From Promethearchaeota archaeon (lineage in GTDB: Archaea > Asgardarchaeota > Lokiarchaeia > Sigyniarchaeales > SOKP01), in assembly GCA_048938025.1 (NCBI GenBank), contig JBHLMP010000022.1, forward strand, positions 1 to 55,075: a stretch of DNA of 55,075 bases. Direction: 5' to 3'. Position numbers and translations under genes: made by a program. The stretch's first letter is position 1. Every line of letters begins with the position of its first letter. Below, piece by piece: positions 17,417 to 48,372 of this stretch. The notes under the pieces were generated by a model. The model saw only the letters and a list, made by a program, of their open reading frames with translations, was not told where the DNA came from and did not search any database.

Positions 17417-17459
17417 GGCATATTTTAAACTAGTTTTAATAGAACCTATAAGTAAATTT

Positions 17460-20959: not shown

Positions 20960-20972
20960 TGGTTACACCTTA

Positions 20973-22607: not shown

Positions 22608-22849
22608 AAGATATTCCTTATAAGTTTAAATTTCTCTTGGTAAAATAATAATTGATTTATGTTAGTTTTTTATAGGGATTTAAGATTATTAATTTTTTTT
22701 GTTGAAGTTTTATAAGGATTTTGATCAGTTCATTTAAATCAGTTCATTAAGGATTTATTACAAAAAACATTAATAGGATATATATTTAATTCATGAACTA
22801 TGGATTTATTTTAATTTAAGGTTCATTCATAATTAAGGTATAAATATTT

Positions 22850-26999: not shown

Positions 27000-27212
27000 A
27001 TCAATAAAATTAGTTTATTATTAATCTTCATGGATTTAAATTATCTCGCTTATTTAATTTTAAGTGTTATTAAAAGAAAGAAAATTTTATAAACTAATCG
27101 ATAGTATTCATATTTAATCAATTTTTATAACAATTCTCTTTTTCTAGGAAAAATTTTTTAATTATTCGTTATTATTTCATCTATATTTTAACTTAAAAAA
27201 GTGGAAAAAGAA

Positions 27213-29479: not shown

Positions 29480-30940
29480 ATGAAATTACTTGATAAAGAA
29501 ATTCGAAAAGTAGCATTAGTAAATCCAAATTTTATTACCAAAAGCATTACAGATAAATTTACAATCCCTGCCTTAGGATTAGAATATCTTGCTGCTAATA
29601 TTTTAGATTTAGTTGAAGTGAAGATAATTAATGGTAAAGTAAGGAATTTAAACCTAATGGAAATAATGGAGGAAATTAATGAATTTAAACCAGATATTGT
29701 TGGAATTTCATGTTGTTTCACAACAGGAGTTAATTTTGCCTTAGAAATCGCGAAAGAGTCAAAAAAATTTGGATATTCAATAGTTTTAGGTGGGTGGCAT
29801 CCTAATTTTGCTCCTTCTGAAATTTTAAAGTATCCATTTGTAGATATTATTGTTCGAGGAGAGGGAGAAATAACCTTTCGGGAATTAACCGAAAATAAAA
29901 ATTTGGAAGAGATAAAAGGATTATCCTATAAAAATAATGGGAGCATTATTAACAATCCAGATCGCCCATTAATCAAAGATTTAAATAAGCTACCACTTCC
30001 AGCGAGAAAATTGAGATATAAAAAGTCTTATTTTCAAATCTTTCAGATGCCTATAGATGCGATTGAAACATCAAGGGGTTGCCCATTTAAATGCACTTTC
30101 TGTAATATTCATCTCTTTTATCGAGGAACTTATAGAACAAAAAGTCCAGAACGGGTTATCCAAGAGTTAAAAATCATTGCAAATGGAAAAAAACACATAA
30201 ATGTAATGATTGTGGATGATAATTTCACAACCGATATTAAAAGAGTAGAGAAAATTTGTGACTTAATAATCAAAGAGGGAATCAAAGTGGATTTAACTTG
30301 TCAAAGTCGCATTGATGTTATAAAAAAGAATCCAGATGTAATCAAAAAAATGTCTAAGGCAGGATTTTGGTGTTTTTTCCTTGGTATTGAGTCCTTTAAT
30401 CAAAAGGCTTTAAATAATATTCAGAAAAGAGTTCATTTAAAAGATATTTTTGAAGCAATCAAAATACTTCATGATAATGATATAGTTATAATTGGCAGTA
30501 TGTTGGTAGGTTCAAATCTTGATGAGGAAGAGAAAGATACTGATCTAATGATAAAAGTTGTTAAAAAATTAAGAATAGATTTTCCATTATATTCCGTAAT
30601 GACACCTTTACTAGGTACTAAATTCAGAGATATCTTGATTGAAAAAAATTATCTGGTATCTCATAATTGGAGTGAATACAATTTTACCACGGCAGTAAAT
30701 CGATTAAATAAACTATCAAAGGAAAAGCTTGACCAACTTTTATCTAAGGCTTATTATTATGGATATTTTCATAGGGGGTGGAAAGATACTTTAATGAGAT
30801 TATATAGGAAAAAAGGAATTAAAATATTTTTAAATACAAGAAAATTTAAAGCTCTTAAGGATCTTTTAGGTTTATTTAGAAATATTAGAAGAATGAAAAA
30901 TGAAATAGATTCAATATCCCCTACCATAAAATTTAATTGA
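29480..30940 (+). CDS. Cobalamin-binding (class B) radical SAM protein
   Basis: LGLEYLA, GGWHP, RGEGE, SRGCPFKCTFC, VDDNF, GIES, TPLLGT. Confidence 0.9.
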   Translation: MKLLDKEIRKVALVNPNFITKSITDKFTIPALGLEYLAANILDLVEVKIINGKVRNLNLMEIMEEINEFKPDIVGISCCFTTGVNFALEIAKESKKFGYSIVLGGWHPNFAPSEILKYPFVDIIVRGEGEITFRELTENKNLEEIKGLSYKNNGSIINNPDRPLIKDLNKLPLPARKLRYKKSYFQIFQMPIDAIETSRGCPFKCTFCNIHLFYRGTYRTKSPERVIQELKIIANGKKHINVMIVDDNFTTDIKRVEKICDLIIKEGIKVDLTCQSRIDVIKKNPDVIKKMSKAGFWCFFLGIESFNQKALNNIQKRVHLKDIFEAIKILHDNDIVIIGSMLVGSNLDEEEKDTDLMIKVVKKLRIDFPLYSVMTPLLGTKFRDILIEKNYLVSHNWSEYNFTTAVNRLNKLSKEKLDQLLSKAYYYGYFHRGWKDTLMRLYRKKGIKIFLNTRKFKALKDLLGLFRNIRRMKNEIDSISPTIKFN

Positions 30941-31007: not shown

Positions 31008-32159
31008 ATGTTAAGTATTACACGTAATTCAAAAAACAAATCTTTTCAATTGCCAATATTAGGATATTTGGGGTATATTATCACTAAATTTTTTCATTCA
31101 TGTACACCGTTTACTTTTATTCATGAAAGATTTGAAACTTTGACATTATGTAATGAAATTCGTAAATTGGAAATAAATAAACCTATTTACATTACTGGGC
31201 TTGCTCGTGCAGGAACTACCATTATGCTGGAAATGTTGAGTAAACACCCAGATTTAGCAACACATCAATATAAGAATCTTCTTATACCATATATCCCTAA
31301 TTGGATGTATAAAATTTCCAATAAAGTTAAGTTTTATTCAAAACCTACTGAAAGGATTCATAAGGATGGTATAATAATTACGAGTGATAGTCCCGAAGCA
31401 GTGGAGGAGATTTTCTGGAGAAAATATTTTAAGCACATAAATACTGAAAATTCTTCACATTTAATTAATGGAAACACTATAAACCCCAAATTTGAAAGAT
31501 TTTATATAAATCATATACGAAAACTCTTAATTGCCCAAAATCGTCCTCGTTATTTAGCAAAAAATAATTATAATATCACTAGATTGGAGTATTTATTGCG
31601 ACTTTTTCCATCTGCCAAATTTTTGTTAATAGTTCGTAATCCAGTCAATCATATTGCTTCTTTAATCAAACAAACAAAGCTTTTCATGAAGATGGAAAAA
31701 GATATTCCTCTTTTACAAGACTGGTTGAAAATTCTGGGACACCAAGAATTTGGTCATCGTCGCATTTGCATAAATGTAAATAACACCGAACTAATTCATA
31801 AAATCCGTAAATTGTGGAGCAATAAAAAAACATATGTAAAAGGATGGGCATATTACTGGGTATCTATTTACGATTTTATTGCCGAAAATCTTAAAGTAAA
31901 TGAAAATCTAAGAAAAGCAACTTTTATAGTTAATTATGATAAATTATGCGAAAAGCCAGCAGATATTATTGATGGAATACTTGAACATACTGAACTACCA
32001 TTAGATAAATTTCTGAAAGTTAGAGAATATTATATCAGGCATTTACATAAACCTACTTATTATTCTCCTGACTTTTCTGAACAAGAACTCTCAGATATTT
32101 ACGAAATTACAAAAGATACAGCTTCCCGATTTGGATTAAAAAATCCTTCAGGTAATTAA
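31008..32159 (+). CDS. PAPS-dependent sulfotransferase family protein
   Basis: PIYITGLARAGTT (5'-PSB loop), IVRNP...IAS (3'-PB), YDKLCEKP. Confidence 0.85.
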   Translation: MLSITRNSKNKSFQLPILGYLGYIITKFFHSCTPFTFIHERFETLTLCNEIRKLEINKPIYITGLARAGTTIMLEMLSKHPDLATHQYKNLLIPYIPNWMYKISNKVKFYSKPTERIHKDGIIITSDSPEAVEEIFWRKYFKHINTENSSHLINGNTINPKFERFYINHIRKLLIAQNRPRYLAKNNYNITRLEYLLRLFPSAKFLLIVRNPVNHIASLIKQTKLFMKMEKDIPLLQDWLKILGHQEFGHRRICINVNNTELIHKIRKLWSNKKTYVKGWAYYWVSIYDFIAENLKVNENLRKATFIVNYDKLCEKPADIIDGILEHTELPLDKFLKVREYYIRHLHKPTYYSPDFSEQELSDIYEITKDTASRFGLKNPSGN

Positions 32160-32894
32160 TTGTTTTAAAGTTACAAATTCCGCGTTTCTAGCTGACCATT
32201 CCTCAATAAACCCTCGTAATCTTTTTAAAAATGTTTTTCCTGTATGAAGCCAACGATCTGGTCTAAAGAACATATTTTTAAATATTTCTGACTTACTTAC
32301 ATTCTTACGAATTAAAGTTTTCATATTAATTGCTTCACACGGATGAAAATATAATATAAGTAATTCATTTTTAAAGATCTTCCGTTTTAGAAAAGGATAA
32401 GGTAATCTCAAATAGATACTATATTTTGAAGGGTGAAATTCTTGAATTTTCTTGTTATCTATTTGGTAATGTGATAATTTTTTGGGTGATACAATCGAGG
32501 AATCGTATCTAAATCCTAAATTACTTAATATTTCGAATAAAAATTTTGATGGTTTTAAATAAGGAGCTCGAAAACCAATAATCTCTGAATTCTGACAAGT
32601 TATTTCTAGAATCTTTTTATTTTGATAAATTACATCTTGACATTTAATAAAATCTAATTGATTTAATCGTTCATGATTTAAGCCATGACAAGCAATTTCA
32701 TGACCTTTTTGCTCAATTAGTCTAATAATTTCTGGTAGATGCTTAACAACATTTCCAGTGCAAAAAAAAGTCCCCTTGATATTAAAATTATTTAAGATAT
32801 CCAATATTTTTAATAATCCAATTTCCACGCCAAAATATGTATTTAAAACATTTGGAAGATCCCTTTCAATATCAAAAGTCAATGCAATCTTCAT
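32148..32894 (-). CDS. Polysaccharide deacetylase (NodB/CE4-like)
   Basis: LTFDIE, HEIACHGLNH, GFRAPY, YDSS, YFHP. Confidence 0.88.
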   Translation of the reverse strand: MKIALTFDIERDLPNVLNTYFGVEIGLLKILDILNNFNIKGTFFCTGNVVKHLPEIIRLIEQKGHEIACHGLNHERLNQLDFIKCQDVIYQNKKILEITCQNSEIIGFRAPYLKPSKFLFEILSNLGFRYDSSIVSPKKLSHYQIDNKKIQEFHPSKYSIYLRLPYPFLKRKIFKNELLILYFHPCEAINMKTLIRKNVSKSEIFKNMFFRPDRWLHTGKTFLKRLRGFIEEWSARNAEFVTLKQLIT

Positions 32895-33025: not shown

Positions 33026-34138
33026 ATGCGATTGTTAATATTAGGTGCAGGGATTACTGGGTGCACATTGGCAAGGCTGATGAAAAATAAAGATTATATT
33101 GTTTCAATTAAGGAAAAACAAGATCATATTGGAGGATTATGTTATACAAAGACAAGTCCTAATGGAATTCTATATGAACCCTATGGTGGACATGCATTTC
33201 ACACTAAAGATAGTCGTATTAAAAAGTTTGTTCTTAATTTCTCAGAGTTTAATAATTATATTCACCGAAAGGGGATTTTTATCAATAATGTATTACGTCA
33301 TTTTCCTCTCAGTAAGAAAACCATTCTTGAGATGGAAAGGTGTGAAAAAATACTCAAGGAACTAGAAGAACGACCAACTACTCCTGATTTAACTAATTTT
33401 GAAACTTTCGCAATTTCTCAATTTGGTAATACTTTATATAAATTATTTATATATAATTATTCTAAGAAAATGTGGGGTGTAGAACCCAAAGAGTTAACAA
33501 CTGAATATATTAAAAATCGTATAACACTAAAAGATTCTAATACTCAGTTATTCGAAGATAAATTTCAAGGGCTACCGGTTAAAGGATATACAGCATTCCT
33601 TAGAAATATGATAGATGGCATCCCTATTGAATTAAATACTAGTGAATTTGATAAGTCTTTATACGATCTCATTTTATACTCTGGTCGAATAGATGAGCTT
33701 TTTAAATTTAAATTTGGAAATTTACAATTTAGGTCTTTACGATTTGATTATAAGGAAAACGAGGTTTGGGAAAATGATAATTATGGTTCAATTAACCTTC
33801 CTCAACATGCGAAATATATACGAAAAGTAAATTTTAAAATTATGTATCAACAGAAAATAAATAAATCATGGATTCAATATCAAGAACCCATATCATTCAA
33901 TAATAATATACCAATGTATCCTATATATACTAAACAAAATATTGAATTATTTGACAAATATCTTATTGAAGCTTGCAAGTCTGATAAAATTATTCCTGTT
34001 GGTCGTTTGGGATTATATAAATATTTAGAAATGGGACAAGCTATTTCTTTAGCAATGAATATGATTCCCCTAATCGAAAATTGGAAAAGATTAAGCCCTA
34101 AAAATAGATTTCTTGAAATTAAAAAGATAATAGGGTAA
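33026..34138 (+). CDS. glf: UDP-galactopyranose mutase
   Basis: GAGITG, HIGGLCY, YGGHAFH, YSKKMWG, FQGLPVKGYT, PMYP, GRLGLYKYLEM. Confidence 0.85.
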   Translation: MRLLILGAGITGCTLARLMKNKDYIVSIKEKQDHIGGLCYTKTSPNGILYEPYGGHAFHTKDSRIKKFVLNFSEFNNYIHRKGIFINNVLRHFPLSKKTILEMERCEKILKELEERPTTPDLTNFETFAISQFGNTLYKLFIYNYSKKMWGVEPKELTTEYIKNRITLKDSNTQLFEDKFQGLPVKGYTAFLRNMIDGIPIELNTSEFDKSLYDLILYSGRIDELFKFKFGNLQFRSLRFDYKENEVWENDNYGSINLPQHAKYIRKVNFKIMYQQKINKSWIQYQEPISFNNNIPMYPIYTKQNIELFDKYLIEACKSDKIIPVGRLGLYKYLEMGQAISLAMNMIPLIENWKRLSPKNRFLEIKKIIG

Positions 34139-34153: not shown

Positions 34154-34924
34154 TTATATTTGCTTCTTCCAATCGATATCTTTTGCTAAATTATAAAAAA
34201 TGTCTTTCTTTTTATGATATTGGGCAATACGTCCTAAACTACGACGTGTGCTTAAAAATCTTCCGCTAGTTAATACTGAAACAAAATTTAAGGTTTTAAT
34301 TTTGCCCTTTTTCATAATTCTACTTAGATATATTAATGAATCTGAAAAAACCTTGTCAATCCCTATTAATTTTTCCGGTAGTTCCTTAAATCCACCAACT
34401 TTAGAAAATATATCTCTTCTAACAATTATATTGCAACCTATAAGTTCAGGATATCCAAGTAAAGTTTTAAAAAAATAATACAAATGCATACTAAAGTTAA
34501 GAAAAAAATAGACTGTTATAGTATATGTCTGAGAACCCAATTTAATTGAAATGGCCCTCCCATCATAATATTTTACTCTGGCACTACAAGCAAGAAGATC
34601 ATTATGTTTCCCAAAGATTCTATAAATCTTTTGTAAGAAATATGGATCTATTATCGTGTCTGCATCTAAAAATATTAGTAAATCACCAGAAGTCTTAGGT
34701 ACAACGTAATTTAATTGAAAGTTTTTACCCTTTTTGGGGGATTTATACACTTTCGCAAATTTTTTGGCAATAGAAACGGTTTTATCAGAACTTTGCCCAT
34801 CAACTACAATAATTTCATAATGAATGTCGCAATTTTGCTTTTTAATAGCTGTTAATGTGTCTTGTATGTTAGGCTCCTCGTTATAAGTAGGGATAATAAC
34901 AGAAATTTTTGGTTTATAATTCAT
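34154..34924 (-). CDS. Glycosyltransferase family 2
   Basis: SVIIPTYNEE, VVDGQSSD, FLDAD, GGF. Confidence 0.9.
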   Translation of the reverse strand: MNYKPKISVIIPTYNEEPNIQDTLTAIKKQNCDIHYEIIVVDGQSSDKTVSIAKKFAKVYKSPKKGKNFQLNYVVPKTSGDLLIFLDADTIIDPYFLQKIYRIFGKHNDLLACSARVKYYDGRAISIKLGSQTYTITVYFFLNFSMHLYYFFKTLLGYPELIGCNIIVRRDIFSKVGGFKELPEKLIGIDKVFSDSLIYLSRIMKKGKIKTLNFVSVLTSGRFLSTRRSLGRIAQYHKKKDIFYNLAKDIDWKKQI

Positions 34925-35043: not shown

Positions 35044-36159
35044 ATGTCTGAAGTCTCTGGAAAAGTGAAATTTTTTACAAAAGGTTTCATATTTTCATTT
35101 ATTTTTTTACTCTTTAGTTCAACAATTATCATTTTGCTTATAATAAATAGAATTTTTTTTTCAATTTCATGGATCGATTCAATTTATAGATATATAACAC
35201 CAATATTATCAAAAATTTTCTATAAATATAATATCTATGTCTATGGTGGAATTTTAATAGCTTTTGTGTTGCTACTTCCTTTATTTGTTCTAGGATATAA
35301 TATAGCAAAAACGAAACAATTGACTGGGTCAATAATGTATCTTTTTAGTTTATTAGGATTCGTCATTATCATTTTCATAGCATCTTATTATACTTATTTT
35401 AGTATCTTATTTATCAAAGATTTAACTCTCAATGTGAGATTATTGCTATTCTTACTTTTTTTGCCAATTAATTTTCCATTGAGTCTAATTTTGTTTTTAG
35501 TAAATATAGATTTCGCAATATTTTTTAAGGATTTAATTAAAGCACGGAAAATTTGGAAACATAAAAGACCTAAATTTGAAATCGAAGTAAAAGGTAAAAT
35601 AACTAATATCAACATAGAAACGGAGCAACATATTTTCACTCCTGTACCAATGTTAATTATAGCAAAATACCTTCAGACTAAGGGTTATTCTGTATCGTGG
35701 TTTGTAAGAGGCGCTTTTAATCATTTAATATCATTAGTTATCACCTATTTAACAGGATGGCCACGAGCAAGAAACGTATTATTTCGACTTACCGGAATGA
35801 AAATAGGTAAAAATTGCCATATTTCTCAAAAAGCAATACCGGATCCACTCTTACCTGAATTAATTGAATTTGAAGATGGTAGTGGCTGTGGTATTGGAGC
35901 AAAATTATTAACCCATAATGCTATGAATATTAACCATGGAAGCTTCAGTTTTGGTCCAATTAAAATTTGTAAAAATGCAAGAATAGGAGCATACTCACTT
36001 GTATTACCTGGAGTTACTATTGGTGAAGGATCAATTATTGGAGCACATTCCGTAGTAGCAGATGACATTCCCCCATATTCCATTGCACATGGTTCACCGG
36101 CTAAAGTTGTGCGGTCTTTAACTGAAGATGAAAAAAAAGAGGTAAATAAAGAATATTAG
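35044..36159 (+). CDS. Membrane-anchored hexapeptide-repeat (left-handed beta-helix) acyltransferase
   Basis: About four N-terminal TM helices, GMKIGKN, IGAYSLVLPGVTIGEGSIIGAHSVVADDIP...GSPAKV. Confidence 0.85.
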   Translation: MSEVSGKVKFFTKGFIFSFIFLLFSSTIIILLIINRIFFSISWIDSIYRYITPILSKIFYKYNIYVYGGILIAFVLLLPLFVLGYNIAKTKQLTGSIMYLFSLLGFVIIIFIASYYTYFSILFIKDLTLNVRLLLFLLFLPINFPLSLILFLVNIDFAIFFKDLIKARKIWKHKRPKFEIEVKGKITNINIETEQHIFTPVPMLIIAKYLQTKGYSVSWFVRGAFNHLISLVITYLTGWPRARNVLFRLTGMKIGKNCHISQKAIPDPLLPELIEFEDGSGCGIGAKLLTHNAMNINHGSFSFGPIKICKNARIGAYSLVLPGVTIGEGSIIGAHSVVADDIPPYSIAHGSPAKVVRSLTEDEKKEVNKEY

Positions 36160-36231
36160 TTTTTTAAATAATAAAGCTAAGGATAAAATTTTTTAATTAG
36201 ATTTAACAAATTATAGAATGGGTAATTTAGT

Positions 36232-37416
36232 TTGGCGTCTGAAATTATACTTAATGATTTAAGAAATGAAGTAGAAGCAACTTCTAATGATTGTAAACTA
36301 TATAAACAAATCTGTGAAGAAAAAGAATATGATTTTGATCAGACAATCAAAGGATCAAACCTTGATGAAGTACCTTATGTAAATTGGAATTATTTTAAAG
36401 AATCAAATAAAAGATTTCAGGAATTATTACGAATTCCTTATAATAAATTATCGTATTGGACAATTAGTTCATCCACGTCTGGAGATCCAAGTTTAGTAGG
36501 GAGAGGAGCTGAAGACATTGAAGTATTTAAAAATAATTATAGAAAAGTATTTGAAGAATATTCAAGAATGCGCTCAGTTGAACGTTTAATCTTATTTGCG
36601 CCATCACTTGAATTTATGAATAAAATGCCGGGGACTTGGTTAGGAAAACGAGGTTTTCTTTTTTATCGAGATATTACAGATATTTGGAAGCATTATGAGA
36701 TAAACTATTTACTGAAATTCAAAGTTTGGAAGGTTCTTTTTTACTTAATTACTCATTTTAAGGCAAAAGCATTTATCGAAATAAATGGAAAATTAATGGT
36801 GAAAAGTCTTAAAGAGGTAGAACACCAGCAAATCCCTACATTAATTGCTAATTCAGTTCCTCTAATATATCAAAATTTTGTAGATTATCACAAGAAACAT
36901 AAAAAAGGTTTTAATATGCCCAAAACTTTCAGGATTCAACTTGGAGGTGGAGGATGGAACGGTATAAAGGGGAGAGTAAAACTTGAGCATAAAATAGATA
37001 AAGTGGACTTTATGGAAAAGATATCTAGTTTTTTTAACATCCCATATGATAATATTACAGATAATTATGGTGCTACTGAAGTTCCAATTGCCTGTGGTGG
37101 TCATTGGAGTAAGAATTATGAGGATTTTCTTTTTCATATTGATAAAGATGAAGCTTCTTTAATCATCCGTGATATAGAAACCCTCGAAAGAATTAAAAAA
37201 ACAAATGAACCCGGTATAATAGAGGTATTAACCCCTTACGGTGTCAAATCTTATGCTGGTGTTGCTGTCATGCTTGATGATATAGTAGAAATAGTAGATT
37301 TTAATAAATGTGTTGAATGTGGTAGAGAAGGTATAGTATTCAGAATAACGGGAAGAATGACACCAGAAATTGGAAAAGGATGTAGTTCTTTTACGAATTT
37401 GTTCCCTTTTAAATAA
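36232..37416 (+). CDS. LuxE-like acyl-protein synthetase (ANL superfamily)
   Basis: SSSTSGDPS, GGGGWNG, DNYGATE, DD, FRITGR...KGCS with LuxE-type C-terminal Cys. Confidence 0.75.
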   Translation: MASEIILNDLRNEVEATSNDCKLYKQICEEKEYDFDQTIKGSNLDEVPYVNWNYFKESNKRFQELLRIPYNKLSYWTISSSTSGDPSLVGRGAEDIEVFKNNYRKVFEEYSRMRSVERLILFAPSLEFMNKMPGTWLGKRGFLFYRDITDIWKHYEINYLLKFKVWKVLFYLITHFKAKAFIEINGKLMVKSLKEVEHQQIPTLIANSVPLIYQNFVDYHKKHKKGFNMPKTFRIQLGGGGWNGIKGRVKLEHKIDKVDFMEKISSFFNIPYDNITDNYGATEVPIACGGHWSKNYEDFLFHIDKDEASLIIRDIETLERIKKTNEPGIIEVLTPYGVKSYAGVAVMLDDIVEIVDFNKCVECGREGIVFRITGRMTPEIGKGCSSFTNLFPFK

Positions 37417-37524
37417 ACTCTTAAGTTCTTGAAAACCTTTTTATGTAAAATTTAAGAAAATAAATATAGAAATACCTAAATTTATAGTCTAATAGCAATA
37501 CAAAAGTCAGTAAATAGAATCAAT

Positions 37525-38379
37525 ATGTTTGATAATAATTCTAATTCTTGGATAAAGAAATTAATTATTCTTTTCATATTTATAGGAGTAATAATGTTAA
37601 CTGCTGAAGTAGATTGGGCTGCGGAGCATCCTGACGTAGGAATTGCTGTACGATTAATATGGTTAATTAGTTTATTAAGTTTAGGTTTAATTTTACCCAT
37701 TCTATTTATGTATTTTGCAGGAAATGAAGAGAGCGAAAGAGGAGAATCTGATAAAAAGTGGTTTTTAATTGCAATTATTCTATTCTTGATCGCTAATGGG
37801 ATACCAGTTATATTTTACGTCATACTTGAAATCTCACCTGGTTTTTTCTTATATCTCCAAATAATTTTGTTTGGGTTAATTCCGGCTTTTTTTCATCAGC
37901 CAAAAAAAATGAACTATCGAATTCTAATATTAGTTATTCTTTTTGGAGCAATTATTATCCCCTTAGGAGTTTTAGTCAATTTGACAATTAATGATATCTG
38001 GTATAAGGGAGTAGTTGATAAAACTATGTACTATTTATCCTTTTGGGGATTGGTAATGACCTTTTTCTATCTTATTGTTGCGATTGGCTGGAAATTGGGT
38101 GGTGGCACTAAAAGGCAAAGTTGGAATATATTCGTAGCTGGCACTCTTTTACAATATAGCACTCTTGAAGATTTCTTATATTTCTTATTAAATGGAAAAC
38201 CGCTTCCTGGTAATTGGCCTTGGATGAGTGATTTTGTTATTAATCTAGAGGTTTTATTTGGGCATATTCCTACTGATTTAGATCTTCTCATATTTTGTCT
38301 AATAATTAGTATAATAGCGCTATTTATTCTTTTTGATGGTCATGGATACATATGGACAAAAATTAGAGAAAAACGATAA
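37525..38379 (+). CDS. Hypothetical polytopic membrane protein
   Basis: About eight hydrophobic segments; conserved-looking LEDFLYF...P.NWPWM. Confidence 0.7.
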   Translation: MFDNNSNSWIKKLIILFIFIGVIMLTAEVDWAAEHPDVGIAVRLIWLISLLSLGLILPILFMYFAGNEESERGESDKKWFLIAIILFLIANGIPVIFYVILEISPGFFLYLQIILFGLIPAFFHQPKKMNYRILILVILFGAIIIPLGVLVNLTINDIWYKGVVDKTMYYLSFWGLVMTFFYLIVAIGWKLGGGTKRQSWNIFVAGTLLQYSTLEDFLYFLLNGKPLPGNWPWMSDFVINLEVLFGHIPTDLDLLIFCLIISIIALFILFDGHGYIWTKIREKR

Positions 38380-38397
38380 TAAAAATAAGTGGAGAAA

Positions 38398-39693
38398 TTA
38401 GTGAAGCCAATCTATTATTGAAGAACAACTTCTACCTTGAGCATCAGTTAATCGACCAATTACTCTAAATGTAGCACCTTCATAACCACATTCTGGACAT
38501 TTCTTTTTTGAAATAAGCTCTACAATATCGTCAACAAGTACTGCCTGATTTATGCTACCATTTACACCATATGGAGTAATCACTTCGAGTAAACCTTCCA
38601 TACCATCATTTACAGGTTCTAATTTATCTAGATCTCTTACTATTATCCTAGTGGTATCAGGGCAATGTAACAAGAAATCTTGATATTTTTCAGACCAATG
38701 TCCTCCAAAGAGAGTCGGACTCTCTGTAAATGCATAAATATCAGCAATATCTTTCGATTTAATGTTAAAAACTCTTTCATAATTTTCAATAAATCTAACT
38801 TTTTCTACTGCGTCTAACTTTGCTTCACCCTTAACGCCATCCCATCCTCCACCACCGCAACCAACGAAAGCTACTCCATCAAGATCAAAAGAAACATTTT
38901 CTTTTAATAGTCTTTTCTCAAACATGTTATTCATTAAAAGTGGGCTCCCGCCAAATATAATTTTACTCACTTCTAATCCTTTCCAATGTCCTGTTTTCAG
39001 AATTGTTTTAACCATTTTCAACATTTTGCTTACATCTAAAATAAAACCCCCTCTTATTGAAAGAGATGAAAGTATTGCCCAGATTGTTTTTAAAATTTTT
39101 CCTTTTACCATATATTCCTCATGCCCATAGTATTCCCAAGGTTTGTTCATACATGCTGTGAAATAGCGTGTTTTTTTAACATATTCAAAACCTTTAGCGT
39201 TTTTTCTTGCCATAAATGACATCATCAAACGATTTGGGGCAAAATTAAAAACAAGACATCGCTTGGATCCAAGTTTTAAATCTTTCCATCTAAAAAACTC
39301 TGTGAAAACTTTAATTGAATTATATTGGATCTGGTCAAAATCATCTAATGTTCGAGGAACAAGTGAGGGGTCCCCCGTGGTAGAAGATGAACATGAAAAT
39401 AATACAATTTTATCAAGAGGTGCTTTTAATAGTTGTAATGTTCGATCTTCTGATTTCTTATAAATATTAGTTGGAGTATATGGGATAATATCTAAATTTT
39501 CGATTATTAAATTATCTGGAATTGTAAAATCGAACTTCTTACAAAAATTTTTTCTGTAATAATTACAGTTATTATAGGAAACTTTTATTTGCTCCAATAA
39601 ATCTTTACAAAATTTTTCATCTGGATAAAGATTAGGTTTAAAATCAAAATATTTCGTTTGTAATTCTTCAGGTAGATAATCATGAACTACCAA
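38398..39693 (-). CDS. LuxE-like acyl-protein synthetase, second paralogue
   Basis: SSSTTGDPS, GGGGWDG, DIYAFTE, FRVIGR...RSCS. Confidence 0.75.
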   Translation of the reverse strand: MVVHDYLPEELQTKYFDFKPNLYPDEKFCKDLLEQIKVSYNNCNYYRKNFCKKFDFTIPDNLIIENLDIIPYTPTNIYKKSEDRTLQLLKAPLDKIVLFSCSSSTTGDPSLVPRTLDDFDQIQYNSIKVFTEFFRWKDLKLGSKRCLVFNFAPNRLMMSFMARKNAKGFEYVKKTRYFTACMNKPWEYYGHEEYMVKGKILKTIWAILSSLSIRGGFILDVSKMLKMVKTILKTGHWKGLEVSKIIFGGSPLLMNNMFEKRLLKENVSFDLDGVAFVGCGGGGWDGVKGEAKLDAVEKVRFIENYERVFNIKSKDIADIYAFTESPTLFGGHWSEKYQDFLLHCPDTTRIIVRDLDKLEPVNDGMEGLLEVITPYGVNGSINQAVLVDDIVELISKKKCPECGYEGATFRVIGRLTDAQGRSCSSIIDWLH

Positions 39694-39792
39694 ATAAAAA
39701 ACCGATCTCTGTAATTCTTTGTATTAATTTAAAGAATTAATGTTAAATAATTAAATCTTATCTGATATTTACCAAAAAAAAAAGAAATTAAA

Positions 39793-41157
39793 TTATATTT
39801 TAGATAAGGCTACTATTTCTGCTTCTTCTTTTTCGAAAAACATTGGAGTTTTTTCCCAACTTAAATCTTTAGGAAGTCTAAATTGACGTAAAAACATATA
39901 AAGATGAATAAAGCCACTTATAGGAAAAAATAACAAAAGGCTATAATGCTTATCACAGTATTTTCGTACCGCATTAAACATAAATCCAAATTGAAAGATC
40001 AGGCAGAAAAGGGTCCAAATAAGTAAATAAAATTCTCCAATCATTAAATAAAATATGGCAAAACCAATAATAATAGGAATCCATGTATCTAAGTTTGCTA
40101 TAACCATCATTGTCATATTTCTGGAGATAATTAGTGATTTTCCATTCTTTTTTTCACTTTTCATTTGCATTAATTGAGGCATATCAAAAATGAATCCTGC
40201 TAACCAGCGGGTTCGTTGTTTTACTAAAATATCCCAAGTATTTGGTACATATTCATAAATTTTTGCTTTGGGCGAAAAGTAAATTTTTACTCCATCCAAA
40301 TTTAATAACACAGATAGATATAGATCTTCTGTCATTGAATCTTCATTAAAACCTCCATATTTCAGAAGATGTCTTGTTCTTACGGCAAAATTTCGACCAA
40401 ATGAATAAGCTGATGACCCTAATCTATTTTTTATTTCAAATAATAACCCTCCTCCAGAAACAATAGAATAATCAAGAAAGATACCTTTAGTTAATTTATT
40501 ATCTTTCCAATTTTTAACTAAAACAGGACCTATTACTGCATTATATCTATCATCTTGAAATGGTGAGATTAAATGTTTTAATGTATCTGGTTGTAAAATA
40601 CAACCTGCATCATAAAGGACAACAATATCATTTTTTACATATTTTAAGCCATAATTCAGAGCTGGAGGTTTTCCCTTTTTAGGAAGATCCTCTGATAACA
40701 CTTCTATATCTATTGTGTTGTGCTCTTTTGCAAAATTTCTACAAAAACCTGATGTATCATCTGATGATCCACTTGTAATTACAATTATTTGGATGTTTTC
40801 CTTAGGATAATTTGATTCAATAATCGAGTTCAAAGTCCTTTCAATTAGTATTCTTTCATTTTTACACGCAATTAATATACTTATCTTTGCATAGTAAGGT
40901 GTTTTGGTTCGATAACCTCTACCAAATGACGCTAAGAAATGGATTCCATAAAAAATTATAAAACCTAGCAACATTATTAGGCCAATTAATGGAAAAATAA
41001 ACCACCAATAAGTTAAAGGGCTAAGAATGAACCTGTCAATCGCTCTTTTTACTCCAGATGACCAGAAAGGTGCTAAATACATGTGAAATAGCACAAAAAA
41101 TATTACCCATACAGAACCAAATAATAAATATCTTGAGATTTTCATATTTTCATTCAC
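39793..41157 (-). CDS. Membrane GT2 glycosyltransferase (D,D,D,QxxRW type)
   Basis: GKPPALN, YDAG, TED, QRTRW, flanking TM helices. Confidence 0.88.
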   Translation of the reverse strand: MNENMKISRYLLFGSVWVIFFVLFHMYLAPFWSSGVKRAIDRFILSPLTYWWFIFPLIGLIMLLGFIIFYGIHFLASFGRGYRTKTPYYAKISILIACKNERILIERTLNSIIESNYPKENIQIIVITSGSSDDTSGFCRNFAKEHNTIDIEVLSEDLPKKGKPPALNYGLKYVKNDIVVLYDAGCILQPDTLKHLISPFQDDRYNAVIGPVLVKNWKDNKLTKGIFLDYSIVSGGGLLFEIKNRLGSSAYSFGRNFAVRTRHLLKYGGFNEDSMTEDLYLSVLLNLDGVKIYFSPKAKIYEYVPNTWDILVKQRTRWLAGFIFDMPQLMQMKSEKKNGKSLIISRNMTMMVIANLDTWIPIIIGFAIFYLMIGEFYLLIWTLFCLIFQFGFMFNAVRKYCDKHYSLLLFFPISGFIHLYMFLRQFRLPKDLSWEKTPMFFEKEEAEIVALSKI

Positions 41158-42085
41158 CTATATTTTTATCCAATTTTTTTAAATTTTTCCAAATATAGCT
41201 GGCAAAAAGAATCACCGAAAGAGTCATAATGCCTAAAAGACTGATTTGATAAATCAACATTGTCCAATCTACTATCCACTCGTGCGATGCAGACCATATT
41301 TCAGTAGCATCGGGATTAATTAAATGGGTTATTAATACAGTAAGACTAGAGGAACCATAGAGTGCAAAAAATGTAGTAATTAATAATATTCGTGTTATTC
41401 TCTCACCAATAAATGGTTTTGTTTCATGTAAACCTAAACCTTCATGTCTTGCTCTCATATACTCATAAATAAAAATTAGTAAGATATTGGTCCAAACCAT
41501 CCATGAAAAATTAAATCCATTCGATAAAACCACTAAATTAGTAGGAACTAAACATACTAACATTAATGTATCACTTACTCTATCAATCACATTATCTAGC
41601 CAAGCACCACTTTTAGATTTGATATCCAATAACCTTGCGATTGCTCCATCAATCCCATCGATAACTCCTGTAACTAGTACTAAAGCAGCAAGTGCAAAAA
41701 ACAAAGAGCCATAACCTAGTTGGTCAGAAAACAAGTCTAATCTGTGCCCCCTACTAGCTATTATAACACCATAAAATATGAGAAATGATAAAATTAAATT
41801 CATAAAAGATACCATGTTTGGAGTTAAGCCCCATTTGATAAAGATTTTTGCTCCGTGATATGTTATTGGCATATAAATTTTTCCAGCTGGATCCTTTTTC
41901 ATTTGTGCAAATTGTTCTTCTAACTTGTGGGCTTGTCCATGATCGCCAAGCCAATCTTTTATAAATTCATCCAAGCTCATAAATTCTTGTTTCGGTTTTT
42001 TATTAGTGAGTCCAATAATGAAAATAATTAATAGGATCCCAAGTAAGACTAGCGGAAATACTATATCAAATATTATTTTTGTCAT
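41150..42085 (-). CDS. CDP-alcohol phosphatidyltransferase
   Basis: TPN and DGIDGAIAR...GAWLDNVIDRVSD signature; overlaps the GT2 start by 8 nt. Confidence 0.9.
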   Translation of the reverse strand: MTKIIFDIVFPLVLLGILLIIFIIGLTNKKPKQEFMSLDEFIKDWLGDHGQAHKLEEQFAQMKKDPAGKIYMPITYHGAKIFIKWGLTPNMVSFMNLILSFLIFYGVIIASRGHRLDLFSDQLGYGSLFFALAALVLVTGVIDGIDGAIARLLDIKSKSGAWLDNVIDRVSDTLMLVCLVPTNLVVLSNGFNFSWMVWTNILLIFIYEYMRARHEGLGLHETKPFIGERITRILLITTFFALYGSSSLTVLITHLINPDATEIWSASHEWIVDWTMLIYQISLLGIMTLSVILFASYIWKNLKKLDKNIGE

Positions 42086-42267
42086 ATAACTTGCCGGGTA
42101 TTATTTTATTCTTTATTGTTCTTATAAATTTGAAAATGGTAATTTAATATAGAGTATCATATGTTATTTAAATTTAGTGTTGAACTCATTATATGATTAA
42201 ATGAAAGTTTATTATATTCAACTTGTATTTATAATATTAATACTATCGTCTAGGTAGAATAAAAATC

Positions 42268-43617
42268 TTGAAGAACCTTGAATCTTTTTTTAACCCAAAA
42301 AGTATTTTAATTGTAGGTGTTTCAAGGAAAGCTTATACTTTTAGTTATACTGTCTTAAAAAACCTTTTAGAGATTTTTTATAAAGGCAAACTTTATATAT
42401 TAAACCCTAATGCTAATGAGATATTAGGTGTTAAATCCTATCATTCATTAGAAGAATTACCTGAAATTCCAGAGCTAGCAGTAATAGTTTTAGGTACAAA
42501 AATATTAGACAGTGTGGAAGAATTAGGTAAGTATGGTGTAAAATATGTAACAATTCAATCTGAATTAAAAACAGGAATTAATGATACTGATTTAACATTA
42601 AAATTGCATAAAGTCTGTGAAAAATATGGGATAACATATTTAGGACCTTCAATGATAGGAATTATTAACTTTATTGATAACTTTACGACATCAATTATTC
42701 CTGTTAGACAACATATAATGCGTGAAAATAAGAACATAAAAGAGGGTATAGGTTTCATAGCACAATCCGGAGGGTTAGCAGGAGCTTTAGGGTGGTGGAG
42801 CCCTTCACAAAAATTACCCATATCAAAAGTTATACACCTAGGAAAAGGCTTTCACGTTAGTGAACAAGACATTATTGAATTTTTTCTTAATGATAAAACA
42901 ATTAAAGTTATTTCTTTGTTTTTAAGGGAAATTTCGGATGAATTAATCGATGCAGTAAAGGGTATCTCTCCATATAAACCTGTTCTTTTCTTTTATGTAG
43001 GTAAAAACGAATTAAAAGAAAGAGAATTAGAAAAAGCAGGAGGAATATCAGTATTAAATTATATTGAGCTTTTTGAGATAGCTAAAATATTCTTATGGTG
43101 TCCAGAACCAAAGGGTCCAAATTTAGGGATTATTGGACCTAGTTCTGGTGCAATTCATCTAATTGTAAAAGAAATGAGAAAACAACATTTATCTTTGGCA
43201 AAACCAGACAAAGAATCTCAAGACATAATTATAAATAAAATCGGTGGCTCTACTTGCGCATATGGTAACCCGGTTGATTATTGGCCCCCAGAGAAATTTA
43301 TCGGTATTAAAATCTGTGGGATATATAATACATCAGCCTCTACCTTATTAAGAGATGAACATGTTGATGGATTAATCCTTGCCTTAGAATTTTTTATTGA
43401 AATTGAATTCGATTTTAATATATTTGATAGTATAAGAAGAATAAATCCAGATAAACCAATTATCGCAATTCTTATACAAGCTGAACATGAAGGAGCTAAA
43501 AGAGTATTTAAATCTGCTTCAGAGATAAGGATTCCCGTCTTTGAAAATGAAATTGAGCGAGCTGTAAGAGGATATAGATTGTTATATGACTATTATTCAA
43601 AAATAAAAAAGAAATAA
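42268..43617 (+). CDS. ADP-forming acyl-CoA synthetase alpha-like CoA-binding protein lacking phospho-His loop
   Basis: FFNPKSILIVGVS, LGPSMIG, AQSGG, GNPVD present; SHTG segment absent. Confidence 0.8.
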   Translation: MKNLESFFNPKSILIVGVSRKAYTFSYTVLKNLLEIFYKGKLYILNPNANEILGVKSYHSLEELPEIPELAVIVLGTKILDSVEELGKYGVKYVTIQSELKTGINDTDLTLKLHKVCEKYGITYLGPSMIGIINFIDNFTTSIIPVRQHIMRENKNIKEGIGFIAQSGGLAGALGWWSPSQKLPISKVIHLGKGFHVSEQDIIEFFLNDKTIKVISLFLREISDELIDAVKGISPYKPVLFFYVGKNELKERELEKAGGISVLNYIELFEIAKIFLWCPEPKGPNLGIIGPSSGAIHLIVKEMRKQHLSLAKPDKESQDIIINKIGGSTCAYGNPVDYWPPEKFIGIKICGIYNTSASTLLRDEHVDGLILALEFFIEIEFDFNIFDSIRRINPDKPIIAILIQAEHEGAKRVFKSASEIRIPVFENEIERAVRGYRLLYDYYSKIKKK

Positions 43618-45161: not shown

Positions 45162-46190
45162 ATGCAAAAAAAAAATAACCTGATATGGATTTTCTTATTA
45201 GGAATTTTAGTTTTTAATTTGAGTCTTGGTTTAGCTGTTGCTTCCGATGATGATGATGATGGAATTGATGATGATTTCGAAGACTCTAATAAAAGAGATA
45301 TTGAAATTGAGTTTGATTCAAATGAAATACAAATTAAATCAGAGCAAAGGAATGGTGACCGTCAAGATGAAATTGAATTGACTATCAAATATGATTCTGA
45401 AGGATTAAATATTGAAATTAGTTATGAGTCTGAAGTTGAATCTGAAAATGAAACTGAATCTGAATTTGAAATAGAATTTGAAGTATCATTCCGTAAACTT
45501 ATTGAATTTGTTGATCTTAACAATAATGGTGTTTATGATGAATCCTTTGATCAATTTATTCAAGAAACAGAAATCAATACATTTCAACCAATAATTTATA
45601 CATCATTTGACATATCTATTGATACAAAAATGCATTATATCATAATTAATACTACTGATGGAGTGTTTGCTGCTCACGTATACTTAGTAGAAGAATTTAC
45701 AATTGTAAATAATACATTAATCACCCCAACTGAAACCAAAATTGATATTGAAATAAATAATTTTAACTACATCGACGCGAATTCACAACTTGCCCTATAT
45801 GTGGAACTAGGATCTGAAATGGATTATGAAGAAGATGACTATACGGAGGATGAGGAAGATGGTTATGCTGAAAATGAAGAAGGAGTATACACATCAAATA
45901 ATGGATTTGCTGGATTCTTTAATTGGGCTGAGAATGCCACCATTGATGGAGTCTCTAAGAAAGTATTAGCTAGTGAAATTACGGTTGATGAATATGATGA
46001 TCAAGAGCAAAAACTTTATCTTAATTATCCAAGAGGAATACATATTTATCATGATCCAAAAATAGGTATTATGACCTTGAGTTCATCAGCTCTCCTATTA
46101 CCATTTGTTCTCTCAATATCGATTGCATCTGTAGTTGCTGTGATTGCAATAATAACTATTCTCATCATAAGAAAACGTAAAGTTACTTAA
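45162..46190 (+). CDS. Acidic secreted, C-terminally anchored surface protein (paralogue 1)
   Basis: Signal peptide, DDDDDGIDDD, EF-hand-like DLNNNGVYD, HDPKIG, TM plus RKRK. Confidence 0.8.
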   Translation: MQKKNNLIWIFLLGILVFNLSLGLAVASDDDDDGIDDDFEDSNKRDIEIEFDSNEIQIKSEQRNGDRQDEIELTIKYDSEGLNIEISYESEVESENETESEFEIEFEVSFRKLIEFVDLNNNGVYDESFDQFIQETEINTFQPIIYTSFDISIDTKMHYIIINTTDGVFAAHVYLVEEFTIVNNTLITPTETKIDIEINNFNYIDANSQLALYVELGSEMDYEEDDYTEDEEDGYAENEEGVYTSNNGFAGFFNWAENATIDGVSKKVLASEITVDEYDDQEQKLYLNYPRGIHIYHDPKIGIMTLSSSALLLPFVLSISIASVVAVIAIITILIIRKRKVT

Positions 46191-46273
46191 ACAAGTTTTG
46201 ATAATCCAAAAATATTCAAAATATTTTTTTTTCCTTTTAATAAATATAAAAATTGAAAATGAAAACATCTTTA

Positions 46274-46293
46274 GTTCAGTAATTTACCAGCTT
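46274..46293 (+). promoter_or_regulatory. Conserved upstream motif, copy 2
   Basis: GTTCAGTAATTTACCAGCTT followed by TTTTATAT. Confidence 0.55.
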
Positions 46294-46387
46294 ATTTTAT
46301 ATTTAAAATCGGACATTCTAGGATCAGATAAGATTTTCAGCAAAATTTATAATATACCAACATTGCAATTAATTTGAGAATACTATC

Positions 46388-47689
46388 ATGAAAAAGAAAT
46401 ATACTATCTTAAGTTTCTTATTCTTAGGCTTTTTAATCTTTAATTCCATCATTGGAATATGTGTTGCTTCAGATGATGATAGTGATGGTGTTGATGATGA
46501 TTTTGAAGAATTAAATAAGAGAAATATAGATATAGAATTTGATCATGATGAGGTTGAGATTGAATCAACCTTAAGAGATGGTGAAACAGTTGATGAGATT
46601 GAAATTTATATACATAATGAGAATGATGGTATTCATTTTGAATTCAGTTACGAATCTGAATACGATAATGAATCAGAATCAGAATCAGAATTAGAGTTGG
46701 AATTTGGAGTAGTTTTCCAAAAAATTATTGAATTTGTTGATCTTAACGATAACAATATTTATGATGAATCTGTTGATCAACTAATCCAAGAAGTTGAATT
46801 AGACTCATTTGAAGATGTGAGTTATGCTGAATTTAATATCTCCAATGATTGTAAATTACATTGTTTTACAATAAACACAACAGATGGCATATTTTCTGCA
46901 CATGTTTATATTGCGGAAGAATTTGATTTCATAAATGATACTTTAATTACACCAACAGAAATTAAAATTGATATCGATATTAATAATTTCAATTATCTCA
47001 ATGCCACTTCCCAACTTGCTCTATATGTAAAACTTGAGTCAGAACTAGATTATAAGGAAGAAGATTATACTGAGGATGAAAAAAATAAATATGCATCTAA
47101 TGAACAAGGAGCATTCATCACTAACAGTACATTTCTAGGATTTTTTACATGGAATGAGAATGCCACTATTGATGGAGTTTCTAAAAGAGTATTAGTTAGT
47201 GAAATTCAAGTTGATGATGATGATGACCAGGAACAAAAACTCTATCTCAACTATCCCCGTGGGATGAAGATTCACCATGATCCTAAAATTGGTATGGCAA
47301 TAGTTAAATCAGAACACAAACCTTTTTTTGCTATAGTTATTATTGGAGTCGTTTTGCTATTTGGTGTAACTACAGCTGTGGCCTATAGTGTTCATCACTT
47401 TTCAGGTAGAAGGGATGTTATTCCACTGATAGATGAAGAAGAAAGAGGAATTCCAAGGAAATTAAATCAATCGTTAATTCAAATTTTTGATGAAGAGAAT
47501 GCTTTAGAAAAAATCTCTCAATTAGGTGATGTAAACTTAACTGCTTTATCTGAAAATTTTTTAAAAGTTTTGGAACAGCTTGAGTGGGATTTAGATGAAA
47601 AAGAAGAATTCATTAAAGAAATGCTTTCATTAACCCCAAAAGAAAGAGAAAACATCATCCAAGAAATGATAGAAAAAAGTAATTTGTGA
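46388..47689 (+). CDS. Acidic surface protein (paralogue 2) with extra cytoplasmic helical domain
   Basis: Same ectodomain motifs; after the TM an extra ~95 aa ending NLTALSENF...EKEEFIKEMLSLTPKERENII. Confidence 0.8.
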   Translation: MKKKYTILSFLFLGFLIFNSIIGICVASDDDSDGVDDDFEELNKRNIDIEFDHDEVEIESTLRDGETVDEIEIYIHNENDGIHFEFSYESEYDNESESESELELEFGVVFQKIIEFVDLNDNNIYDESVDQLIQEVELDSFEDVSYAEFNISNDCKLHCFTINTTDGIFSAHVYIAEEFDFINDTLITPTEIKIDIDINNFNYLNATSQLALYVKLESELDYKEEDYTEDEKNKYASNEQGAFITNSTFLGFFTWNENATIDGVSKRVLVSEIQVDDDDDQEQKLYLNYPRGMKIHHDPKIGMAIVKSEHKPFFAIVIIGVVLLFGVTTAVAYSVHHFSGRRDVIPLIDEEERGIPRKLNQSLIQIFDEENALEKISQLGDVNLTALSENFLKVLEQLEWDLDEKEEFIKEMLSLTPKERENIIQEMIEKSNL

Positions 47690-47721: not shown

Positions 47722-48372
47722 ATGAATATGGCTTTAAACTTATCAAAACAAGAAGAAATCGTATTAAATGCAGTTCAGGACTATTTAAACAAAAATAGAC
47801 ATTTTAATCTTAAAAAAATTCTTCCATTCATCCAATCAAGGTTTAGGAGGGCTTCAATAAACATAAATAAATATGGAATAGAAACTATTCTTAAATCTCT
47901 AGTTAAAAAAAAACTAATTGTAGAGGGTTCAAAATTAACAAGTAATGAAATCCTACAGAATGCTAAAAGAGTAGAAATTTACGATTTTATTTTAAAAAAT
48001 CCTGGTACTTACTTCAATAAAATTATTACTAAATTAAAGATTAGCAACCACATAGTTGTGTGGCATCTTAATATGCTAGAAAAGTTTGGTTATATCAAAA
48101 AAGAAAAAATAGAAAACCACAATGTTTATTTTGATTCAGAGGTGGCTTTCAATGAAGTAAGGATAAAATATTATCTCTCAAATAGAAAATGTGAAAAAAT
48201 TATTGGTTATTTACAAATCAATAAAATTGGTATTAATAAAACTCAACTTTCTACTGATTTAAGTATGCATATAAATACAGTTCAAAAATATTTGATAATC
48301 CTTGAAAAAATTGGAGTAATATCTAAAAAAAAGCAAAGTCGTACTACTCTATATTTTCTAAATCCTATTTGA
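47722..48372 (+). CDS. Winged helix-turn-helix transcriptional regulator (tandem wHTH)
   Basis: RVEIYDFILKNPG...WHLNMLEKFGYI and second HTH LSTDLSMHINTVQKYL. Confidence 0.8.
   Translation: MNMALNLSKQEEIVLNAVQDYLNKNRHFNLKKILPFIQSRFRRASININKYGIETILKSLVKKKLIVEGSKLTSNEILQNAKRVEIYDFILKNPGTYFNKIITKLKISNHIVVWHLNMLEKFGYIKKEKIENHNVYFDSEVAFNEVRIKYYLSNRKCEKIIGYLQINKIGINKTQLSTDLSMHINTVQKYLIILEKIGVISKKKQSRTTLYFLNPI

Follow-up and report, generated by a model that had tools for sequence, protein, structure and literature searches.

We analysed a 55,075-nucleotide (nt) stretch of the genome of a Promethearchaeota archaeon (Asgardarchaeota; Lokiarchaeia; contig JBHLMP010000022.1, positions 1 to 55,075), hereafter the window. 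Its interval 35044-43617 holds seven long open reading frames (ORFs), two of which encode proteins of the LuxE family:

35044-36159 (+): hexapeptide acetyltransferase, membrane-anchored, with an N-terminal multi-transmembrane (TM) region and a C-terminal left-handed beta-helix (LbH) domain (Pfam Hexapep, 8.8e-10)
36232-37416 (+): LuxE-1, 394 amino acids (aa), the second LuxE-family member, lineage-specific (clade C1; PF04443, 64.5 bits)
37525-38379 (+): polytopic membrane protein, 284 aa, no family, a variable module member
38398-39693 (-): LuxE-2, 431 aa, clade A, acyl-protein-synthetase-like, the last operon gene (PF04443, 93.1 bits)
39793-41157 (-): membrane-embedded, synthase-type family 2 glycosyltransferase (GT2), 454 aa, with TM helices at both ends (Glyco_tranf_2_3, 4.6e-32)
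41150-42085 (-): divergent CDP-alcohol phosphatidyltransferase, 311 aa, the first operon gene (PF01066, 45.9 bits; cut-off 22 bits)
42268-43617 (+): protein with CoA_binding_2 and Succ_CoA_lig domains, resembling the alpha subunit of ADP-forming acyl-coenzyme A (CoA) synthetases, a core flank gene (TIGR02717, 7.3e-60)

The locus comprises two convergent units. ORF calls together with Pfam and NCBIfam matches confirm the gene order and strands given in a preliminary description of this DNA, in which acetyltransferase, LuxE-1 and membrane protein face CDP-alcohol phosphatidyltransferase, GT2 and LuxE-2. A gap of 72 nt separates the acetyltransferase from the downstream LuxE-1, and the phosphatidyltransferase and GT2 ORFs overlap by 8 nt. 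The twin layout is real in independent contigs: the junctions between LuxE-1, the membrane protein and LuxE-2 are bridged by short public DNA contigs (X1 records 2 and 3; X5 record 18; X9 record 29), and three other assemblies (loci L036-L038) show the same arrangement. One public contig (run X4) joins position 37414 to 38377, skipping the gene for the 284-aa membrane protein; in assembly L037 that gene is likewise missing, and LuxE-1 and LuxE-2 are directly convergent. The membrane protein itself had no match in Pfam (E up to 10), NCBIfam or a PDB profile search, and the ESM Atlas gave no usable lead for it or for a 419-aa neighbour. A scan for bacterial-type promoters and terminators found 48, where shuffled sequences predict 55, and was therefore no better than chance.

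By homology, LuxE-1 and LuxE-2 are genuine LuxE-family adenylating enzymes and not of the PaaK/F390-synthetase type. The two are 33% identical, and both exceed the curated Pfam cut-off for PF04443 (24.9 bits). The PaaK model TIGR02155, whose cut-off is 646.3 bits, gives them 25.6 and 14.7 bits, over the N-terminal region alone; clustering with PaaK or F390 synthetases, one of the outcomes that the preliminary description had named as fatal to its proposal, was not seen. When LuxE-2 was used as a single query, its sole PDB sequence match below 1e-3 was the solved LuxE 7xc6_E (5.2e-6). A 20-sequence family profile matched the same structure with an E-value of 1.1e-34 (profile positions 14-392, LuxE residues 32-368 of 373), and matched PaaK structures at 1e-10 or weaker, across the N-terminal ~100 residues alone. 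On the NCBIfam LuxE equivalog model NF052244, LuxE-2 reaches 36.7 bits against a cut-off of 550, and LuxE-1 is not among the matches. Thus, they are members of the LuxE family but not LuxE orthologues.

The catalytic positions of LuxE are largely retained. The motifs first noticed in the window are all present in the translations (residue numbers are those of LuxE-2 unless stated otherwise). They comprise the P-loop (SSSTSGDPS in LuxE-1, SSSTTGDPS in LuxE-2), GGGGW and GGHWS..Y.DFL in both proteins, and, for LuxE-1 and LuxE-2 respectively, YGATE and YAFTE, CVECG and CPECG, and GKGCSS and GRSCSS. The tail cysteines are C384 in LuxE-1 and C423 in LuxE-2, 10 and 8 residues from the protein end, so there is no room for an ANL C-terminal subdomain. 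According to PMC9157457, LuxE is defined by the missing C-terminal subdomain and by a C-terminal motif with an acylated Cys364 and a catalytic Arg355. LuxE-2 C423 and R414 align with these two residues. In an alignment of 36 Asgard-clade rows, C423, K288, H332, H343, C399 and C402 are kept in all 36 and R414 in 35, a conservation not due to chance. The GHWS motif, the second histidine and CxxCG have no equivalent in the aligned sequence of the solved LuxE and are markers of the subfamily. H332, H343, C399 and C402 are also common in the outer clades, and may form a putative subfamily-specific metal site.

The Asgard proteins form a LuxE radiation of their own. In a family tree of 55 members, the Asgard clade has support of 100/99 and divides into subclades A (LuxE-2), B, C and D. 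Clade B includes a third paralogue in the window's own genome, on contig C21 (G000:C21:2034-3347, minus strand; locus L031; 437 aa; PF04443, 59.6 bits), which is flanked by GNAT and flavodoxin genes. This Asgard-specific radiation, of at least four clades (A-D), has lost the LuxC reductase. The genome holding the window is 96.7% complete, and genome-wide searches of it found no match to LuxC (PF05893), LuxD (PF02273) or the PP-binding/acyl carrier protein (ACP) models. Two genes of the luciferase-like-monooxygenase family lie on another contig (C49); this family is broad and was matched in 9 of 14 control genomes.

The LuxE-2 operon is widely conserved. Scanning one genome per species yielded 184 relatives, and we analysed loci from the best 80 (78 loci); these 80 are titled Asgard or "uncultured archaeon", with one Bathyarchaeia label. 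LuxE-2 orthologues (at least 60% identity) occur in 46 of the 78 loci, and the denominators that follow count loci with enough flanking sequence. Of 39 loci, 34 have a same-strand GT2 gene upstream of LuxE-2, which it directly adjoins in 30, and the complete order of CDP-alcohol phosphatidyltransferase, GT2 and LuxE-2 is kept in 32 of 37. The acetyltransferase lies within 8 kb of LuxE-2 in 24 of 38 loci, and the small GT2 described below does so in 23 of 38, alongside the acetyltransferase. Given how close and widespread this linkage of LuxE-2 to the CDP-alcohol phosphatidyltransferase and membrane GT2 genes is, the suggestion that it helps to acylate a CDP-derived glycosylated phospholipid is a reasonable one.

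The operon belongs to a larger module. At lower coordinates, the window holds the following additional members:

34154-34924 (-): soluble GT2, 256 aa (Glycos_transf_2, 1.3e-30)
33026-34138 (+): UDP-galactopyranose mutase (Glf), a variable module member (GLF, 9.3e-41)
32148-32894 (-): carbohydrate esterase family 4 (CE4) polysaccharide deacetylase, 248 aa, predicted to be cytoplasmic (Polysacc_deac_1, 4.6e-18)
31008-32159 (+): sulfotransferase, a variable module member (Sulfotransfer_3, 1.5e-19)
27849-29315 (-) and 29480-30940 (+): divergent pair of B12-binding radical SAM proteins (B12-binding and Radical_SAM domains)

Module genes occur together. We sampled 24 genomes of the genus, and 41 genomes overall. 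LuxE-family, GT2, CDP-alcohol phosphatidyltransferase and acetyltransferase genes occur in an identical set of 11 of the 24 genus genomes, and the other 13 carry none of them. CE4 is found in 10 of these 11 and in none of the 13; the single miss is G017, whose module contig ends at that side. Orthologues of the B12-radical-SAM genes adjoin the module in G012, G021, G008 and G004. In a core-gene tree, module-bearing and module-free genomes are interspersed, which corresponds to about six gains or losses, at least five of them forced by well-supported branches. The gene used for this tree was the CoA-binding neighbour (42268-43617), whose orthologues occur in 22 of the 24 genus genomes and 37 of the 41 overall, irrespective of the module. 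This gene had been described as a ligase homologue flanking the system; as a core gene present with or without the module, it was ruled out as a member.

The module is an accessory, heavily rearranged, glycan-like gene set, probably for cell-envelope glycoconjugates. Its presence in 11 of 24 genomes, its glycan-like content and its divergent CDP-alcohol phosphatidyltransferase paralogue run counter to the earlier view that this is a locus of lipid biosynthesis with relevance to ester or hybrid membrane lipids. A link to bulk ester or hybrid membrane lipids, and hence to the 'lipid divide', is not supported. Genes for an MSMEG_0568-type radical SAM protein and ribosomal protein L10e lie upstream of the module in the window (25872-27845), and between the CoA-binding core gene and the phosphatidyltransferase in G003 (L046 1827-4492). 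These different placements suggest that the module has been shuffled around a core-genome anchor. Farther upstream (19566-24888) are genes of ordinary metabolism, unrelated to the module: a methylmalonyl-CoA mutase large subunit, MeaB and LUD/CCG-domain (lactate-utilisation-type) proteins.

The module enzymes point to glycan assembly on a phospholipid. In the CDP-alcohol phosphatidyltransferase, the family motif DGxxDGxxAR...GxxxDxxxD reads DGIDGAIARLLDIKSKSGAWLDNVID. This protein scores 72.7 bits on NF040950, the equivalog model for archaetidylinositol-phosphate (AIP) synthase (cut-off 180). On that model, four further paralogues of the same genome reach 115-158 bits and the operon copy is fifth-best of six, which marks it as a specialised copy and not the housekeeping enzyme. 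Among PDB entries, AF2299 and PIP synthase are its best relatives, and its nearest solved relatives are all inositol-phosphate enzymes. The membrane GT2 has TED and QRTRW motifs and matches PgaC/IcaA at 1.4e-31 (109.9 bits, cut-off 422) and NodC at 3.4e-10 (39.4 bits, cut-off 550). CE4 matches the XrtA-system deacetylase (1.8e-25) and NodB (2.8e-18; 66.1 bits, cut-off 240), and the sulfotransferase has a weak NoeE-like match. Glf scores 247.7 bits on TIGR00031 (cut-off 303.75), and the best NCBIfam matches of the hexapeptide acetyltransferase are O-acetyltransferases, all below cut-off. Neither a TM helix nor a signal peptide was predicted for CE4, the sulfotransferase, Glf, the small GT2 or either LuxE, and their steps are thus placed in the cytoplasm.

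The LuxE pair probably supplies an acyl group for a surface glycolipid or glycan, and not for membrane lipids. On balance, we consider it probable that the LuxE proteins are self-acylating acyl donors, independent of ACP and CoA, that decorate a phospholipid-anchored glycan, with the LuxE-2 operon as the core of the module. We infer both the self-acylation and the order of the steps. By homology, each LuxE would adenylate a carboxylic acid with ATP, and the acyl group would then move to the enzyme's own C-terminal cysteine (C384 or C423) on a short flexible tail. With the acyl group carried on this cysteine, neither CoA nor ACP would be needed. The CDP-alcohol phosphatidyltransferase would first make a phospho-lipid anchor, or attach one; this anchor would probably belong to the inositol-phosphate type. 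The GT2s would then add hexosamine or hexose units at the cytoplasmic face, giving a short hexosamine-containing glycan, and the cytoplasmic CE4 would strip an N-acetyl group to free an amine. Finally, the LuxE thioester, or the acyl-AMP, would re-acylate this amine, or else a hydroxyl group, using another acid. Such a deacetylate-then-reacylate scheme would explain why the module needs an acyl-activating enzyme. The acetyltransferase, sulfotransferase, Glf and B12-radical-SAM proteins would contribute strain-variable decorations (acetyl, sulfate, galactofuranose and radical-SAM modifications). LuxE-1, of clade C1, would be a lineage-specific extra cassette with no obligate partnership with LuxE-2.

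The end product can be proposed only tentatively. It is possible, though rather doubtful, that the module makes an inositol-phospho-glycolipid or lipoglycan that is acylated and displayed on the Lokiarchaeial surface, similar to glycosylphosphatidylinositol (GPI), phosphatidylinositol mannosides (PIM) or Nod factors. In this molecule the phospholipid anchor would be isoprenoid, the hexosamine de-N-acetylated and the acyl chain something other than acetyl; LuxE would itself carry and deliver that chain, without CoA or ACP. A possible role of such a product is to anchor the acidic surface proteins that the window encodes at 45162-47689. These are two paralogous secreted/acidic proteins (45162-46190 and 46388-47689, both plus strand), in each of which a poly-Asp run comes after a signal-like N-terminus. 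The C-terminus of the first, a TM helix plus RKRKVT, resembles a sorting signal. A helix-turn-helix gene (47722-48372) lies downstream of the pair. Homologues of the acidic proteins directly adjoin a C2-type LuxE in G007 and G017 (L026 and L029).

Several observations weigh against LuxE-driven acylation of a phospholipid-anchored glycan. No acyl acceptor or transferase was identified. The invariant K288 lies four residues past the GGGW tryptophan, while the catalytic Lys238 of LuxE directly follows the Trp of its GGGWK loop (PMC9157457), although the GGGW loop could still position the shifted lysine correctly. Five of the 39 LuxE-2 orthologues have no upstream GT2, and CE4 lies within 8 kb of LuxE-2 in just 15 of 38 loci. 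In L040, the LuxE-2 orthologue sits amid housekeeping genes, and in L073 and L074 it is followed by three B12-radical-SAM genes, with no GT2 or CDP-alcohol phosphatidyltransferase. In L053 (G004; 9359-16677), the genes downstream of LuxE-2 encode a U32 protein, an ABBA (Orf2-type) aromatic prenyltransferase and two SPASM radical SAM proteins. CE4 was not found in the LuxC-bearing module versions of G026, G027 and G029, which are described below. Clade B lacks conserved neighbours across 24 orthologous loci. Furthermore, the core-gene tree uses one gene as its proxy, and the related genomes that it compares are not independent. Two other loci depart from the usual arrangement: L077 has none of the module genes near its LuxE-2 orthologue, and L075 has the CDP-alcohol phosphatidyltransferase without the GT2.

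A reductive route is an unlikely alternative. Here, an unrecognised reductase would replace LuxC, and the resulting aldehyde or alcohol would serve as substrate of the CDP-alcohol phosphatidyltransferase or as an alkyl substituent, giving an alkyl-phospho-glycolipid. The sister clade of clades A-D, which includes P0125 and P0129 (the latter from a Bacillus), has LuxC beside the LuxE-like gene in 6 of the 9 metagenome loci examined, and LuxE-LuxC fusions of 825 aa exist (P0184). In other families of the order, LuxC matches of 1e-51 to 1e-95 stand beside a distant LuxE (G026, G027, G029, G037 and G038), and G035 encodes both proteins on separate contigs. One such case is an operon of G026 (L194, G026:C133:71000-90500; 10063-17625, minus strand), which reads, on one strand, CDP-alcohol phosphatidyltransferase, GT2, U32 protein, LuxE-like protein (76% identical to P0125), LuxC (2.4e-95) and SDR. 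The occurrence of LuxE and LuxC in the same operon suggests that this operon has long required an activated acid; in the window's genus, the LuxC-less clade-A enzyme occupies the position held by the LuxE-like protein and LuxC in G026. The same locus also holds a C1-type LuxE, 62% identical to LuxE-1, about 9 kb from the LuxC operon. One of the conditions that the preliminary description had named as refuting its proposal thus applies in part: a cognate LuxC does exist, beside the sister LuxE clade in other families, but not in this genus. Against the reductive route, the window's own genome has no LuxC match, and the 11 module-bearing genomes of the genus yield just two weak partial ones (G003, 5.3e-8; G004, 7.2e-4). 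Nor does any reductase recur in the module across the loci scanned, and the CE4 of the genus, not found in the LuxC versions, suggests a different chemistry.

LuxE-2 could also act as a carrier for radical-SAM tailoring, although we regard this as decidedly unlikely. In this case, a small acid held on its tail cysteine would be modified by B12-radical-SAM enzymes, the product would be a specialised small molecule, or else an acyl group of an unusual kind, and the glycolipid link would be secondary. LuxE-2 is directly followed by two or three B12-radical-SAM genes in tandem in 6 of 38 loci, and also in the shorter loci L044 and L080. The arrays of L073 and L074, the downstream set of L053 and the two B12-radical-SAM genes in the window's own module point the same way. 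The L053 set looks like small-molecule tailoring genes. This locus also holds a 471-aa ORF weakly similar (27%) to the B12-radical-SAM genes of the window. Across the loci with B12-radical-SAM genes after LuxE-2 (L044, L062, L068, L071-L074 and L080), the encoded proteins are ~40% identical to that of 27849-29315. However, 32 of the 38 loci have no tandem array, and the linkage to GT2 and CDP-alcohol phosphatidyltransferase is far stronger. Radical-SAM modification could equally be a sub-step that prepares the acyl group for the proposed glycan acylation.

It is very unlikely that the LuxE-like enzymes pass their acyl group to free CoA for use by the hexapeptide acyltransferase. The position of that gene immediately upstream of LuxE-1, its perfect co-occurrence with the LuxE family in the genus and the weak N-terminal similarity to PaaK-type CoA ligases would fit such a supply role. 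However, the LuxE-like enzymes lack the ANL C-terminal subdomain, with which CoA ligases carry out thioesterification. The transferase matches best to O-acetyltransferases that use acetyl-CoA, and the CoA-binding protein next to the module is encoded by a core gene with no relation to it.

The twin layout is a lineage-specific arrangement. Clade C (support 100/100) splits into C1, which unites LuxE-1 with a G012 member and P0126 (98/91), and C2, with the genus's eight remaining C copies. The identity of LuxE-1 to copies from other families is 57-62%, but to the C2 copies found in its own genus only ~50%, and its orthologues with at least 89% identity are confined to L036-L038. The site beside the acetyltransferase holds a cassette of GT2, radical SAM and alpha/beta-hydrolase genes in 18-19 of 47 loci; the window lacks this cassette and has LuxE-1 and the membrane protein at the site instead. 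The rarity of twin loci, together with the clade distribution, indicates a lineage-specific cassette arrangement and makes an obligate heterodimer unlikely. Conservation of the neighbourhood therefore holds for the LuxE-2 operon and fails for the twin pair. It is highly improbable that LuxE-1 and LuxE-2 form a heterodimer making ester-linked or hybrid membrane lipids, since, although they are convergent neighbours here and in L036-L038 and the operon has a lipid-type CDP-alcohol phosphatidyltransferase, a LuxE-1-type gene lies within 8 kb of LuxE-2 in just 4 of 38 loci, four module genomes (G001, G008, G021 and G024) carry a C2 copy without a LuxE-2 orthologue, G003 has clades A and B and no C type, the LuxE-1 site often holds the other cassette, and the module is accessory and glycan-like. 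In the sampled genus, clade B is restricted to module-bearing genomes. As a positional member of the module it was ruled out by its unconserved neighbourhood, despite this genome-level co-occurrence.

To our knowledge, LuxE has been described almost solely as one of the three parts of the fatty acid reductase of bioluminescence. What is new here is a LuxC-less LuxE family that has radiated in Asgard archaea and is wired into a phospho-glycolipid/glycan module, with its best-conserved member fixed at the end of a CDP-alcohol-phosphatidyltransferase/GT2 operon. A literature search, which did not extend to supplements, found no paper on these Asgard LuxE genes. If a self-acylated cysteine is indeed the donor, glycolipids or glycans would be acylated independently of ACP and CoA, in an organism with no ACP match. 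Should the acylated inositol-phospho-glycolipid also prove correct, acyl groups would be transferred by a logic that is new, and an acyl lipid component with an ester or amide linkage would for the first time be assigned to genes in Asgard archaea. The module thus offers a testable gene set for the strain-variable surface glycoconjugates of Lokiarchaeia, whose envelopes are almost unknown, and the division of the sampled genus into about half with and half without it provides a natural comparison.

The module can be compared with several known systems. In Nod-factor synthesis, NodC is a GT2, NodB a CE4 deacetylase, NodA an N-acyltransferase, NodH and NoeE are sulfotransferases, and NodL is an O-acetyltransferase. 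The window's module has a NodC/PgaC-like GT2, a NodB-like CE4, a weakly NoeE-like sulfotransferase and an LbH O-acetyltransferase, all predicted to be cytoplasmic or membrane-bound. None of these matches reaches an equivalog cut-off, the CDP-alcohol phosphatidyltransferase and Glf have no counterpart in the Nod system, and NodA was not found in a search whose control also matched nowhere. The Nod-factor parallel is therefore a working analogy and not pathway membership. N-acylated bacterial O-antigens also resemble the proposed deacetylate-then-acylate logic. Among acylated amino sugars, perosamine carries tetronate (PMC3441752). The flagellin glycosylation islands of Aeromonas, as reported in PMC7874193, hold LuxE-family genes among glycosyl-, acetyl-, methyl- and phospho-transferases. 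These islands additionally encode LuxC, an ACP and an AMP-dependent synthetase (PMC7874193), and the Asgard genome has no LuxC or ACP match. Compared by their genes alone, both systems place LuxE-family genes in a variable surface-glycan context.

The closest enzymatic relative is the LuxE of the bacterial lux fatty acid reductase (7xc6_E). The PaaK/F390-synthetase/CapK branch is related over the N-terminal ~100 residues and the P-loop, and differs in that the Asgard proteins have no C-terminal subdomain. With lux LuxE, in contrast, the Asgard proteins share the fold family, the missing C-terminal subdomain, the tail Cys and Arg, the GGGW loop and the P-loop. They fall below the equivalog cut-off for LuxE, and their genome has no LuxC or LuxD match and no luciferase operon. 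Their loop lysine is shifted by three residues, they carry the additional invariant GHWS, His and CxxCG, and their genes lie in a glycolipid/glycan context.

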